This document shows positions 3,841 through 47,274 of a stretch of DNA of 64,000 nucleotides, piece by piece. Every line of letters starts with the position of its first letter. The stretch's first letter is position 1. The DNA lies in assembly GCA_027491435.1 (NCBI GenBank), contig JAOZFG010000017.1, positions 32,001 to 96,000 of the forward strand, written 5' to 3'. Origin of the DNA: Thermoproteota archaeon (GTDB lineage: Archaea; Korarchaeota; Korarchaeia; Korarchaeales; Korarchaeaceae). A program made the translations under genes and the position numbers. Below the pieces are notes generated by a model, which saw only the letters and a program-made list of their open reading frames with translations, did no database searches and was not told the origin of the DNA.

Positions 3841-5046
3841 ATGAGGGTTAGGAAGGTCCTCACGCTGGATGACGTGGCCGTTGAAGGAAAGAAGGTCTTC
3901 CTTAGGGCTGATATGAACGTCCCCGTCGGAGAGGACGGGCAAATTATGAACAGTGAGAAGATTAAGCAGGCAGCAAAAACGTTAAAAGAGTTAATAGAGA
4001 GAGGGTCTGCCGTTATCGTGGGTACCCATCAAGGCAGGCCAGGTAGCAACGATTTCATCAGCACAGAAGCACATAGCGCCATACTATCAGAAATATTGGG
4101 AACTGAGGTCAATTACGTAGATGGCGTTATATCTAGAGAGGTCAGGGAGGAGATAAGTAACTTACAGGCTGGAGAGGTACTAATGTTAGAGAACCTGAGG
4201 TTTATGGCCGAGGAGAACATCGAGGGTGACCCTAAGGATTTGGTGAACACGCACTTCGTCAGGAGGCTAGCCCCTCTCTTTGACATTTACGTGAATGATG
4301 CCTTCCAGGCGGCCCATAGGAGTCAACCCTCTCTTGTGGCCTTTCCTTACATAAAACCATCGGCTGCTGGCAGGATAATGCAGAAGATGATCGCTGAAAT
4401 GGCTGAGATAGACGCTATAAAGGGCAAGAGAGTCTTCATCTTGGGAGGGGCCAAGGTATCCGACAAGCTCAAGGTAATAGTCCACGCCATCAAGAACAAC
4501 AAAGCTGCTGAAATACTGACGGGCGGACTTGTAGGCTCTCTAATGGCGTTAGCGGCTGGTCACAAGATAAATGGGGCCTTAAAGAGGTTGAGAGATTTGG
4601 ATTTGCTCCTCCCAGCTGCTAGGGACATACTAGAGAGGGCTTCAGGCAGGGTTTTATATCCAGTGGACTTCGTGGTCAAGGATGAAGAAGGTGAACTAAG
4701 AACCTACCCTGTGTACGCGATCCCTGAAGGCGGACAGATAGTGGATATAGGTCCGGGAACCATAGAAATATACAAGGAGAGACTTAAGGAGGCCGATTTA
4801 GCCGTGGCCAACGGTCCAATGGGCATATTTGAGAGGCCAGAGTCAAGGAGGGGAACTCTGGAGATTGTCAAGGCCATGGAAATGTACGCTAAGGAATCGG
4901 TTCTCTGTGGGGGTCACATGAGCACCGCTGCCAAGCTGGCAAACACAAAGGGGAGCAGGATATACACGGCCGGAGGAGCAGTTCTTTATGGGCTAGCCGG
5001 CTTGCCCCTCCCGGCTATCGATGCTTTGAGGGAAGGGGTCAGATGA
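3841..5046 (+). CDS. pgk: phosphoglycerate kinase
   Basis: RADMNVP, HQGRPG, LENLRF, DAF.AAHR, LGGAK, NGPMG.FE motifs. Confidence 0.95.
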   Translation: MRVRKVLTLDDVAVEGKKVFLRADMNVPVGEDGQIMNSEKIKQAAKTLKELIERGSAVIVGTHQGRPGSNDFISTEAHSAILSEILGTEVNYVDGVISREVREEISNLQAGEVLMLENLRFMAEENIEGDPKDLVNTHFVRRLAPLFDIYVNDAFQAAHRSQPSLVAFPYIKPSAAGRIMQKMIAEMAEIDAIKGKRVFILGGAKVSDKLKVIVHAIKNNKAAEILTGGLVGSLMALAAGHKINGALKRLRDLDLLLPAARDILERASGRVLYPVDFVVKDEEGELRTYPVYAIPEGGQIVDIGPGTIEIYKERLKEADLAVANGPMGIFERPESRRGTLEIVKAMEMYAKESVLCGGHMSTAAKLANTKGSRIYTAGGAVLYGLAGLPLPAIDALREGVR

Positions 5047-12696: not shown

Positions 12697-12972
12697 CTAC
12701 ACGAGTATGCCCAGTTTAGGAGCCACGTCTGAGGCTTTATACTTTGGTTTGAGCTTAACGTAAGCCTTCTTCCTTCCATCGGGAGTTATTAGAGTCCAGA
12801 CCTTATCTACCTTGACCTCCAGTATCTCCTCCACCGCCCTCTTTATTTCCTGCTTGTTAGCCCTTAGGTTAACGTAGAAGGTCAATTTATTCTCCTCATT
12901 TATCAATCTAACGGCCTTCTCGGTTGACACAGGACTTATTATAACATCATAAGGGTCAAACTTCTTATACAA
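12697..12972 (-). CDS. rpl23: 50S ribosomal protein L23 (uL23)
   Basis: TEKA, ANK.EIK.AVE, KKAYVKL. Confidence 0.97.
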
Positions 12973-43090: not shown

Positions 43091-43684
43091 CTAGGACTCT
43101 TCAAGCTCTTTCTTCAGCTTTCTCCAATACATCTCCTCATAGCTCCTTCTACTCTCTATCTCGGAGATCTTCTTCTCCATCGCCCTGAAAGCGGTGGAAT
43201 GCATTGATCCTTCTAACAGCGAGAATATGGCCTCCCTTGCCGGGAGGATGTCATATATCTTCCCTATTATGGACACCGTGTGTCCATAAACTGATATGTG
43301 AGTGCCGGTCTTCTTCTCTATAAAAGTCCTAGACTTACCCTTCTCTCCAATTATTCTACCCCTCATCCTCCTGAGGGCGTTCTTACTGCTGCCCACAAAC
43401 CTCCTTATGTCGATGACCTCCAACACGTAGTCGTCCTCCAGTAACTTAATTGCTATCTCGGGGTTGAACCCCCTGCCTATAGCCCTCACCACAGACTCGA
43501 GCTTCTGGGGAAGCAGGGGGTCTTTGGGCATATCGTGGAACCTTATGGTGACCTCTCCCGTGCCACTATCAACTACTATCTCAGCTCCAGTGAGCTCCTC
43601 CAGCATGCGCTTTGTCGAGCCTCCTTTGCCTATTAGCACACCAATCCTCTCTCTTGGAATTCTAATTGATATTTCGTAAGGCAC
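43091..43684 (-). CDS. KH-domain pre-rRNA processing protein Pno1/Dim2
   Basis: RIGVLIG..G, AIGRGF, GRIIGE.G, G..H. Confidence 0.92.
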   Translation of the reverse strand: MPYEISIRIPRERIGVLIGKGGSTKRMLEELTGAEIVVDSGTGEVTIRFHDMPKDPLLPQKLESVVRAIGRGFNPEIAIKLLEDDYVLEVIDIRRFVGSSKNALRRMRGRIIGEKGKSRTFIEKKTGTHISVYGHTVSIIGKIYDILPAREAIFSLLEGSMHSTAFRAMEKKISEIESRRSYEEMYWRKLKKELEES

Positions 43685-43695
43685 AGGGAATCCCC

Positions 43696-44484
43696 CTACC
43701 CGGATATCTCTTCTGCTAACTTGTAGGGATCAGGTACAGTTAACTTGAACCTTCTATAAAAGAATTGAGTCACTCGTTCAAGGTCCCTGAGCAGCAAGGA
43801 GAAGGCCAGAGGATGAGTTATCACAACCGCTTGAGATACGTCTATTATCCAGTGACTGTCCTCCCAATACATTATGTTGTATTCACTCAGATCCCCGTGT
43901 ACCAACTCAGCTTCTCGATAGGCCTTCCTTATGTCTTCTATTATGGAGTTCATGATGCTCTCAGGATCGTCTAGGCTCTCTAAGTCTTTAAGCAGAGGGG
44001 CGGGGGTAGCGTCTTTGCCTATGAACTCCATAACCAGCACGTTTCCCGTAACATCTATGGGCTTGGGTACCTTTACCCCCGCCTCCCTAAGCCTCTTCAA
44101 GTTCCTAAACTCTTTTTTTGCCCACATTCTTATTATTTTATCTCTATCCTTTACAGGTATGAACCTATAGTCGCCAGCTAAGTAATCTACATATTTCTTG
44201 AAGTTAGCTGTGTAGACCCTGTAAACTTTGACCGCTACCTCCCCTTCAGGCCCCATCCCTGCCAGAACTAGCGCTTCTTTTCCCGCGCTTATGACCCAGG
44301 TTAGATCGTATAGGACGCCCTTATTGAAGAGTTTAAGTAGGGATCTCACGGTTCTCTGGTCAAAGGCTAGCTGCCTCACCTTGTAGTACTCCTCATCCTT
44401 TATCCGCTTGAACTTTTTCTCCTCCTTCCTGAATATCTCCTCGAGCTTGGCTTCTAGCTCCTCTACATCTTCCAACAAGAACAC
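43696..44484 (-). CDS. rio1: RIO1 serine/threonine kinase
   Basis: IS.GKEA, WA.KEFRNL, LVHGDLSEYN, IIDVSQAV. Confidence 0.95.
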   Translation of the reverse strand: MFLLEDVEELEAKLEEIFRKEEKKFKRIKDEEYYKVRQLAFDQRTVRSLLKLFNKGVLYDLTWVISAGKEALVLAGMGPEGEVAVKVYRVYTANFKKYVDYLAGDYRFIPVKDRDKIIRMWAKKEFRNLKRLREAGVKVPKPIDVTGNVLVMEFIGKDATPAPLLKDLESLDDPESIMNSIIEDIRKAYREAELVHGDLSEYNIMYWEDSHWIIDVSQAVVITHPLAFSLLLRDLERVTQFFYRRFKLTVPDPYKLAEEISG

Positions 44485-44487
44485 CCG

Positions 44488-44841
44488 TTAGAAGGCTTCC
44501 GTGTAAGTTCCCCACTCCTCGGGTATGTATCCCCTCTCCATTAACCAAGCGACCTGCTGCTGATTATACCTGACCACTATGTCCCCCTTACTCTTGTTAA
44601 ACGGCCATATCGAAACTAGCACTATATCCCCCCTCTTTATCCAGGATCTCCTGCCCCTCAACTTGCCCCTAACCCTACATATCCTAACTACGCCGTCAGA
44701 ACATTCTACTCTAAAGTGCCCTTTCCCGAGGGGCTCTAATACACGGCCAAAAACCTCGAGCTCCTCATCCGCTGGTAAAAGCTCCTCCATCTCAGCGTCA
44801 AGGGACCTCTCAACATCTCCTCTCTTCTTCTTTTTAGGCAG
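44488..44841 (-). CDS. eif1a: translation initiation factor aIF-1A (probable CTG start at 44841; first ATG at 44790)
   Basis: V.C.DG..R..R.RGK, WI..GD.VLV..W, KGDI..RY; SD-CTG-PKKKK extension. Confidence 0.93.
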   Translation of the reverse strand: MPKKKKRGDVERSLDAEMEELLPADEELEVFGRVLEPLGKGHFRVECSDGVVRICRVRGKLRGRRSWIKRGDIVLVSIWPFNKSKGDIVVRYNQQQVAWLMERGYIPEEWGTYTEAF

Positions 44842-44853
44842 TTAATCACCCCC

Positions 44854-45285
44854 CTATATCTTGGGTATTGGCGTCTCAGCTCCACAGGCAGTACACCTGA
44901 GCACCCAAGTTCTCCTGACCTTCACTATTACTGTGTCGGGCCTGCCGCAGTGTGGGCAGATTACGTAGGTTCTTATGAACTTCTGTATCCTGGCATCTAC
45001 CAGTTGAGGGTCCAGCTTTCTGGACAGTATTAACTTCCTTCCGTCCTCTGTGAGGAAGTAAGGCGAACCCAGTTCCTTAGAAAGGTACCTAGCCAAAAGT
45101 TTAGGATCCCTGTTGAGGGCTGTAACCAGCTCCTTAAAGTTTACTATGTGCGTCTGCTTGCCTTCCCACCTGACTATGGGCCTGGGAGGGGTAAACCTCT
45201 CACCGCTCTCAATTATATCAGGGAGAGCCTCTTTGGCAGCCCTTAGCATCTCCAAGTATTCCTCTCTTGTGGACAATCTTTTCAC
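44854..45285 (-). CDS. eif2b: translation initiation factor aIF-2 beta
   Basis: ERF, T...NF, LNRDP, YVIC..C..PDT, C.ACGA. Confidence 0.94.
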   Translation of the reverse strand: MKRLSTREEYLEMLRAAKEALPDIIESGERFTPPRPIVRWEGKQTHIVNFKELVTALNRDPKLLARYLSKELGSPYFLTEDGRKLILSRKLDPQLVDARIQKFIRTYVICPHCGRPDTVIVKVRRTWVLRCTACGAETPIPKI

Positions 45286-45972: not shown

Positions 45973-46083
45973 GGGCCCGTGGCTCAGACTGGATAGAGCG
46001 CCCGCCTTATATGGCGGCTCCCGCTACATAACCGCCAGAGGAGAAGCGGGAGGTCGGGGGTTCAAGTCCCCCCGGGCCCACCA
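45973..46083 (+). tRNA. tRNA-Ile(TAT) with a 33-nt intron (46011-46043 or 46012-46044), CCA encoded
   Basis: Exons nearly identical to tRNA-Ile(GAT); CCCGC-CT-TAT-A[intron]A-GCGGG. Confidence 0.92.
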
Positions 46084-46298
46084 CCCCGTTTAAGCCTGGT
46101 AAACAATTCCCTGTTTATCAGGTACCAAACTAGAAGGGACATTGAAAGTATCAAGAAAGCTGAGATGACTTTAATAGCTGCTTCCAAGAACCCCTTCCCA
46201 ATCGAGAGGACAGAGACCTTTATAACTAGCATAGCAGCTATGGTGAGCGCCCAACCAGACAAGATTATCCAAATGGCCAACAACAACCCTTTGTCCAT
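46062..46298 (-). CDS. small 2-TM hypothetical protein
   Basis: Two hydrophobic helices; starts 4 nt after the GT4 gene; stop codon lies antisense within the tRNA-Ile T arm. Confidence 0.55.
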   Translation of the reverse strand: MDKGLLLAIWIILSGWALTIAAMLVIKVSVLSIGKGFLEAAIKVISAFLILSMSLLVWYLINRELFTRLKRGGGPGGT

Positions 46299-46302
46299 TT
46301 AA

Positions 46303-47274
46303 TCACCTCGGCGTCATCAGGTAATACGTAGTAAGCGAAAGTAGGCTAGACAGGGCCGTTAACGCTATTATTTCCTTGACCACCCTCCTTTCGTCCTTGC
46401 CCCTGTGCGAAACCAAGACGGCTATTAGGGTCATCGGGGCCTCGGGGTCTTCGTTAACGTAAAGCACCCCGTCCCTAACTACAACGGGCCTTTTCATCTC
46501 CCTCCTCTCCCTAAGCCCCTTTACACTGGCTATCACCACAAATCCGGAGACCATGAAGGGTATTAGGGCTATGAAGAAGAACATCTCCCTGTTGGACGTT
46601 GCCGCTATTGAGGCTATAGCTGAGCCTACAGAGAGCGAGAGCGTGTCCCCCCCAAAGGCATCAGCAGGGTATTTATTCTTCAGGAAGTAAGGGATAAGCG
46701 AAGATATTAGAAGCAAGGTCATCCACCTTGAGGAGGCGTCCATCACCGGGAGCAGCAGCATTAGGGAAGTTATCACAGAGCCTGGCATTAACCCGTTTAA
46801 CGCGTCCATCATGTTTATGGCGTTGGCGAATACTGAGAACATAATTGGTAGGATTAACCAGTAGACGTAATACAGTCTGGCCCTTCCGACTACGGGCAGC
46901 AGGGGCCTGGGGGTCAACACCCCCAAGGCTATCAGGGGGAGGGGGGTCACTAGGAGTAAGGCGGGCTTTGTTAGGGCCGACAGGTTTATTAGGTCATCTA
47001 TCATGCCTATAACCGCCCCTAAGGAGGTAGCAACGGCCACGGCTAAGAACTTAGGATTCCCTGTGATGCCGGATAGGACGATTAACGCTGACACGAAAGG
47101 TATTACCACGGCGGGCCCCACAGGCTCAGGAACCCACCTCTCCTCCCTCTTGTGATAGTCCCTAGACAATCTTCCAGCCTTCTTCAGTCTATAGATGTAC
47201 GACCTGAGAGCCCACTCCGTAAAGGCGGCCGTAACTATCAGAGAGAGTGGCACCAGCAGATCCTCAGCTGACAT
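46303..47274 (-). CDS. MraY/WecA/GPT-like glycosyltransferase family 4 (PNPT)
   Basis: GMIDD, NAINMMDALNGL, YPA..F.GD. Confidence 0.85.
   Translation of the reverse strand: MSAEDLLVPLSLIVTAAFTEWALRSYIYRLKKAGRLSRDYHKREERWVPEPVGPAVVIPFVSALIVLSGITGNPKFLAVAVATSLGAVIGMIDDLINLSALTKPALLLVTPLPLIALGVLTPRPLLPVVGRARLYYVYWLILPIMFSVFANAINMMDALNGLMPGSVITSLMLLLPVMDASSRWMTLLLISSLIPYFLKNKYPADAFGGDTLSLSVGSAIASIAATSNREMFFFIALIPFMVSGFVVIASVKGLRERREMKRPVVVRDGVLYVNEDPEAPMTLIAVLVSHRGKDERRVVKEIIALTALSSLLSLTTYYLMTPR

Follow-up and report, generated by a model that had tools for sequence, protein, structure and literature searches.

How is the translation of aIF1A started in an archaeon whose gene carries CTG at the position where its relatives have a start codon? 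NCBI table 11 gives CTG as a possible start, and there are initiation-factor genes in which a non-optimal start signal serves autoregulation, such as infC (IF3) with its AUU start and eIF1 with its poor context. For archaea, the start codons listed in two reviews are AUG, GUG and UUG only (PMC7531240; PMC4705826), and no description of an archaeal CUG start was found in the literature searched. Initiation profiling in Haloferax volcanii assigned about 30% of putative alternative sites to near-cognate codons, but these were set aside (PMC7261190). In Escherichia coli, CUG initiates at 1–2% of the AUG level (bioRxiv 10.1101/063800), and a survey of 36 genome triplets counted a switch to CUG at one of 2,468 ancestral UUG starts (Belinky, Rogozin and Koonin 2017, PMC5622118). 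According to the same survey, non-AUG starts are associated with stronger or better conserved Shine-Dalgarno (SD) sites. A preliminary description of the present locus proposed that CUG is the true start of aIF1A and that it could provide a translational feedback loop. Here, we consider the locus, its relatives and the ways in which this gene could be initiated.

The aIF1A locus

In the window, by which we mean the whole stretch of 64,000 nucleotides that was analysed, aIF1A lies in its korarchaeal context, directly downstream of aIF2-beta, and is followed by the genes for a RIO-type kinase and a KH-domain protein; the kinase gene shares an operon-like cluster with aIF1A (Table 1). The protein passes the Pfam model PF01176 (eIF-1a): its score of 83.5 bits (E = 8.3e-24) lies above the curated cutoff of 30.2. 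It has 100 codons when counted from ATG 44790 and 117 residues when counted from the CTG, and between TAA 44844-44842 and ATG 44790 there is no in-frame ATG, GTG or TTG. The aIF2-beta protein ends in ...TPIPKI, followed by TAG. The stop codon is followed by a 12-nt spacer, GGGGGTGATTAA, the final three bases of which are TAA, and the SD-like run is composed of bases of this spacer and the G of the aIF2-beta stop. After the CTG, the codons are CCT AAA AAG AAG AAG AGA GGA GAT GTT GAG AGG TCC CTT GAC GCT GAG. The preliminary description had correctly recognized a CTG in the aIF1A frame that directly follows an in-frame TAA and is preceded by an SD, and its coordinates and peptide were right; the SD string it gave lacked one or two of the G residues present in the sequence.

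Table 1. Features of the aIF1A locus, with positions in the window.
Feature	Position	Strand	Remarks
aIF2-beta gene	44854..45276	(-)	140 codons and stop TAG 44856-44854; Pfam eIF-5_eIF-2B, 3.9e-31
SD site GGGGGGTGAT	44845..44854	(-)	first G is the final base of the aIF2-beta stop codon
TAA directly 5' of CTG	44842..44844	(-)	in frame; shuts the aIF1A frame upstream
CTG at ancestral aIF1A start position	44839..44841	(-)	TTG in clade-mates
N-terminal tail, 16 codons, PKKKKRGDVERSLDAE	44791..44838	(-)	aligns to tails of relatives and of solved a/eIF1A chains
ATG, first canonical in-frame start of aIF1A	44788..44790	(-)	begins 100-aa ORF; Met invariant in relatives; without SD
aIF1A OB-fold core and stop	44488..44787	(-)	stop TAA 44490-44488; Pfam eIF-1a; PDB aIF1A, 2.3e-22
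RIO-type kinase gene, directly downstream of aIF1A	43696..44484	(-)	Pfam RIO1, 8.1e-59
KH-domain protein gene (Pno1/Krr1-like), further downstream	43091..43684	(-)	Pfam KH_1, 2.2e-14; KH_KRR1_2nd, 3.8e-11

In the window, aIF2-beta and aIF1A are in the same frame. A read-through fusion of the two was considered and rejected, since in two relatives, L001 and L014, the offset is 14 nt, which is out of frame. Between the CTG and ATG 44790, an out-of-frame ATG (44814-44816, minus strand) with TTG right after it opens a frame of 26 codons; ribosomes moving downstream from the SD would be intercepted by it.

Start codons of aIF1A in relatives

A scan of species-representative genomes gave 32 loci, 30 of which are of the Korarchaeia type (59–81% identity); L031 and L032 (40–47% identity) were excluded from all counts. 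In all 30, aIF2-beta is directly upstream of aIF1A, and an SD-led start is found 11–27 codons upstream of an invariant internal Met. The preliminary description had looked to an alignment across Korarchaeota for a conserved non-AUG codon at this start. The SD-supported codon was TTG in 18 loci (L001-L007, L009, L010, L012, L014, L017, L019-L021, L023, L029 and L030), ATG in ten (L008, L011, L013, L015, L016, L018 and L024-L027) and GTG in two (L022 and L028), with CTG in none of the 30.

In a maximum-likelihood tree based on aIF2-beta and aIF1A, the window falls inside a clade of 15 rows (support 100/96), and each of the other 14 has TTG. The window CTG lines up in register with the TTG of two of these rows, L001 and L014, which likewise follows directly on a stop codon (TAG in L001, TAA in L014), and the architecture of these two loci, GGGGTGGT followed by the stop codon and TTG CCG AAG, matches that of the window. 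Throughout the clade, 9–14 nt separate the aIF2-beta stop from the aIF1A start, always with the SD inside this gap. Because all the clade-mates have TTG, the simplest history would be that the CTG arose by a single T-to-C transition on the terminal branch of the window and is not a conserved feature. The preliminary description would have taken ATG, GTG or TTG at 44841 in close relatives as speaking against its reading, and TTG is what all 14 carry.

In a subclade of the ATG loci (L008, L011, L013, L016 and L018; around 3930-4050), the frame is open for about 20 codons more upstream of the SD-led ATG. This additional stretch is arginine-rich and starts with TTG CCA (LPSRRRGKRKR...) behind a weak SD (−3.8); it may represent a longer isoform or a relic of a TTG-Pro start.

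Ribosome-binding signals

The strength of an SD was expressed as its duplex energy with a 10-nt anti-SD motif, which we take to be the appropriate one and which fits the GGAGGTGAT-like motifs preceding many starts of the window. The SD before CTG 44841 has −14.7 kcal/mol with this motif and −15.4 in a 12-nt scan, which is among the strongest values of the window; the corresponding value before ATG 44790 is −3.5 kcal/mol. A spacer of 3 nt separates the SD from the CTG, as in L001 and L014 and in L005, L009 and L010, and the near-cognate codon is provided in this way with a ribosome-binding site at a working distance. Across the clade, the SDs of aIF1A starts range from −8.7 to −14.7 kcal/mol, the window tying for the strongest.

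Is CTG used as a start elsewhere in this genome? Among the window ORFs of at least 100 codons, aIF1A is the only one with a strong SD directly before a near-cognate codon 0 of its stop-to-stop frame. Scans of the window for a strong SD followed by CTG gave two further sites, each inside a longer gene; the window has no second credible CTG start, and general use of CTG as a start in this genome was rejected on these grounds. The SD-TAA-start arrangement recurs at 46296-46311 (minus strand), where GGTGATTAA is followed by ATG and an ORF of at least 78 codons.

TTG as a routine start codon

With an SD of −9 kcal/mol or lower as the criterion, 38 SD-led starts are predicted for the window, of which 15 are ATG, 13 TTG and 10 GTG; in a stricter set of 21 located no more than 25 codons from the frame opening, the numbers are 11, 8 and 2, respectively. 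Genes starting with TTG include those for ribosomal protein L11 (36254, plus strand), FtsZ (51970, plus strand) and aIF2-beta (45276, minus strand), and further examples are found at 12972 (minus strand) and 2928 (plus strand). Start counts pooled over all loci were unfit as a background, the same few orthologous genes being repeated in them. With about one-third of the SD-led starts, the share of TTG is unusually high, and discrimination at the first position may be relaxed in this lineage.

The neighbouring aIF2-beta gene serves as a control. Its probable start is TTG 45274-45276 behind the SD GGAGGTGA (−14.2 kcal/mol); an alternative earlier GTG at 45285 overlaps this SD. In the clade-mates, aIF2-beta starts with ATG in 12 of the 12 loci scored (it was not found in L005 and L009), with SDs of −3.7 to −12.5, and TTG is found in the window and several outgroups. 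Since the aIF2-beta start is ATG throughout the clade-mates, constancy of a start codon across this clade can be regarded as ordinary phylogenetic inertia. A special status of TTG at aIF1A was considered and rejected for this reason, in addition to the frequency of TTG among the SD-led starts. In both adjacent initiation-factor genes, the window lineage has a weaker start codon than its clade-mates, each beside a near-maximal SD.

The N-terminal tail and its selection

An open stretch of 17 codons is not significant by itself, as its chance is (61/64)^17, or about 0.44. The N-terminal tails of 22 korarchaeal aIF1A proteins, which all carry ...E(R/S)SLDAEMEELLP, can be aligned with the extension. 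Among solved a/eIF1A chains, residues 5-105 of Pyrococcus abyssi aIF1A are matched by residues 11-111 of the long form, and human eIF1A is matched by residues 3-109. An aIF1A beginning at ATG 44790 would miss residues present in other a/eIF1A proteins. Judging from these alignments, a basic N-terminal tail preceding the OB fold is encoded and homologous to those of the relatives, and it would be made only if the CTG initiates. All 23 aligned proteins share the internal Met (position 18 in the long form), which is also present in all 30 Korarchaeia loci, although it has no SD; its role could be structural, or it could serve as a secondary start.

In the nine-codon DVERSLDAE block of the tail, the window differs from its 14 clade relatives by 3–6 synonymous and 1–4 non-synonymous changes, and from eight of them, including L001 and L014, by 4–6 synonymous and a single non-synonymous change. 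The pN of the block is about 0.047 against these eight and ranges from 0.047 to 0.19 over all 14. In the aIF1A core, pS between the window and the clade is 0.68–0.84, which means that synonymous sites are saturated, and pN is 0.11–0.16. A codon model fitted to aIF2-beta and the aIF1A core of 13 taxa (L005 and L009 dropped) put omega at about 0.03 and the length of the window branch at 3.0 substitutions per codon; the latter estimate is noisy, but the branch is clearly long. The window tail contains neither a stop nor a frameshift, and its sole length difference from L001 and L014 is one whole codon. By this pattern of substitutions, the tail is under purifying selection in all relatives. A branch-specific test restricted to window-unique bases found no non-synonymous change against 2.3 expected under neutrality (P ~0.10), its power being low because of the saturation of synonymous sites.

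Decay of the tail would be expected if it had evolved neutrally over anything longer than a small final part of the window branch. With so long a branch and an intact tail, either the change to CTG is recent or the tail is still translated. The case was noticed through its intact tail, however, so that a recent loss of the start would look identical; being noticed in this way favours recent events of any cause.

Gene calls in the closest database proteins

Nine database proteins that match eight of the TTG loci at 91% identity or more start exactly at the TTG, and P0021, a 100% match to TTG locus L029, has its start at an ATG 17 codons upstream of the TTG. Closest to the window are P0003 (95% identical, 100 aa), which starts at the internal Met, and P0001 (87%, 108 aa), which starts 8 codons before it at the codon homologous to GTT 44814-44812; compared with the 117-residue form, their annotations lack 17 and 9 residues, respectively. 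Since both calls skip the ancestral start, they suggest, indirectly, that independent assemblies of close relatives likewise have no canonical codon there. This would argue against a sequencing error private to the window and for an older, fixed state.

How is aIF1A initiated?

We give about an even chance to the reading that CUG remains the start of full-length aIF1A, aided by the strong SD and by coupling to aIF2-beta. The lineage would have inherited a TTG start that lay 9–14 nt past the stop codon of aIF2-beta, with a strong SD 3 nt in front of it, and a single T-to-C transition would then have turned TTG into CTG. Ribosomes positioned by the SD, some of them coming from termination on aIF2-beta 12 nt upstream, would put the initiator tRNA on CUG to produce the full 117 residues of aIF1A, basic tail included, although the efficiency would probably be lower than with UUG. 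What is observed at the locus is the CTG, its homology to the start of the relatives, the intact SD with its spacing and the conserved, selected tail, and from this we infer that CUG is decoded as a start and that coupling and the strong SD compensate for its weakness. Several points speak against the use of CUG: CTG was read in none of the 30 relatives, so that it has no support from conservation; the window offers no second credible CTG start; CUG is absent from the archaeal start codons given by the reviews (PMC7531240; PMC4705826), and aIF1 destabilizes non-AUG complexes (PMC6237735); and the invariant in-frame ATG 17 codons downstream is a fallback start. What stands of the claim that CUG is the true start is its agreement with the start position of the relatives, the working SD and spacing and the conserved tail; what does not stand is conservation of the codon.

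Could initiation at this position have been lost? It is possible, though on the unlikely side, that the change from TTG to CTG ended initiation there fairly recently, leaving a tail-less aIF1A of 100 residues made from ATG 44790 and 17 codons as an undecayed relic. In favour of this, no canonical start precedes ATG 44790 in the open frame, the relatives all share its Met, and P0003, the database protein nearest to the window, is annotated from it; in addition, measured initiation at CUG is poor (bioRxiv 10.1101/063800), and neutrality is compatible with the branch-specific test. However, no SD precedes this ATG, though operon-internal starts here usually have one, and the out-of-frame ATG 44816-44814 sits between the SD and ATG 44790. 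The tail is strongly selected in all relatives, so that losing it should be costly, the SD would need to have stayed perfect after becoming useless, and on a branch of this length the loss would have to be very recent. It is also conceivable, with a small probability, that the organism has TTG and that the C at 44841 reflects a wrong base call in the consensus or a variant not fixed in the population, as it is one transition away from the state of all 14 clade-mates. Consensus substitution errors are rare, however, and exactly this base would need to have been hit, in a window whose genes otherwise look intact; moreover, P0003 and P0001 come from other assemblies and are also called downstream, when the nine proteins of the eight TTG relatives are called from TTG and P0021 from an upstream ATG. 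A more far-reaching version of CUG initiation, which we consider improbable, is that CUG has become fixed as a functional start in a small subclade of Korarchaeum comprising the window and the P0003 and P0001 genomes and that full-length aIF1A reinforces its own synthesis there, because the eukaryotic basic tail promotes near-cognate initiation.

The least probable explanation, and in our view a very unlikely one, is the feedback loop of the preliminary description, in which CUG would be a selected, deliberately weak start that senses initiation stringency in the manner of infC (AUU) or eIF1 (poor context). In its favour, the product is an initiation factor, 18 of 30 relatives and every clade-mate retain a non-AUG start (TTG), and the SD is very strong, as would be expected if it compensated for a weak codon (PMC5622118). 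Nevertheless, the atypical start of infC or eIF1 type, conserved among relatives, has no counterpart here, CTG being found in none of the 30, and ten relatives use ATG for aIF1A. Nor does the conserved TTG help the idea of a weak start kept for feedback, since it is no special or weak signal in this lineage but a routine one (13 of 38 SD-led starts, 8 of 21 in the stricter set; aIF2-beta, L11, FtsZ). The factor that destabilizes complexes on non-AUG mRNA in archaea is aIF1 (PMC6237735), and it is this protein, not aIF1A, that acts as the fidelity factor (PMC6237735; PMC4705826). Yeast eIF1A, through its basic tail, favours initiation at suboptimal sites (PMC5756025), so that any feedback through aIF1A would be positive, unlike that of infC or eIF1, and thus of the wrong sign for a negative loop. 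A search for RNA structure masking or presenting the aIF1A start gave an MFE z of −1.32, with 22 of 200 shuffles folding equally well, which is not significant; no conserved structure and no other loop-specific feature was found at the locus.

Comparison with known systems

With the switches counted by Belinky, Rogozin and Koonin, this case shares the change from ancestral UUG to CUG in a conserved gene and a strong SD beside a non-AUG start; unlike it, the survey counted events without showing that CUG was used (PMC5622118), and here the gene encodes an essential initiation factor of an uncultured archaeon and the event would have occurred on a long branch. Bacterial CUG initiation is similar in that the mRNA is SD-led and the first position is mismatched to the initiator anticodon, but the measurements of 1–2% of AUG were made only in E. 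coli (bioRxiv 10.1101/063800). The infC and eIF1 systems likewise combine an initiation-factor gene with a non-optimal start signal; their atypical signal is conserved, however, and the factor itself discriminates against it, whereas here a single genome carries the CTG, and the known discriminator is a factor other than aIF1A (PMC6237735; PMC4705826). As in translational coupling, which in H. volcanii fades only beyond a spacing of about 30 nt (PMC12548453), co-oriented genes for interacting translation factors are separated by an SD-holding gap of 9–14 nt that is conserved across the clade, but for aIF2-beta and aIF1A it is this spacing alone from which we infer that the two genes may be coupled.

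The kind of event, a rare start-codon switch to CUG, is already known, and the locus is a further example; either way, it is a point change in a single lineage and not a conserved regulatory device. If CUG initiates, the accepted archaeal set of AUG, GUG and UUG would be extended, in a gene that acts in start-site selection. Such initiation would also flag a class of genes truncated by annotation pipelines, the P0003 and P0001 annotations being without all or most of the conserved tail, and it would offer a natural test of the extent to which coupling and a strong SD make up for a C·U mismatch in the first position at high temperature. If CUG were fixed in the subclade, it would be the first case of a naturally occurring CUG start in an essential gene of an archaeon, and with self-reinforcement the supply of aIF1A would be tied to start-codon stringency in a lineage that starts about one-third of its SD-led genes at UUG. 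If the tail has been lost instead, the conserved aIF1A tail would be dispensable in at least one lineage.

An intron-bearing tRNA located nearby was considered as a reader of the CUG start and rejected, as its UAU anticodon is unrelated. This tRNA (45973-46080, plus strand, 108 nt) is matched by Rfam with 57.5 bits and missed by ARAGORN; in the Rfam alignment, it has a 34-nt insertion after the anticodon loop, and the apparent UAU anticodon is of the tRNA-Ile type.
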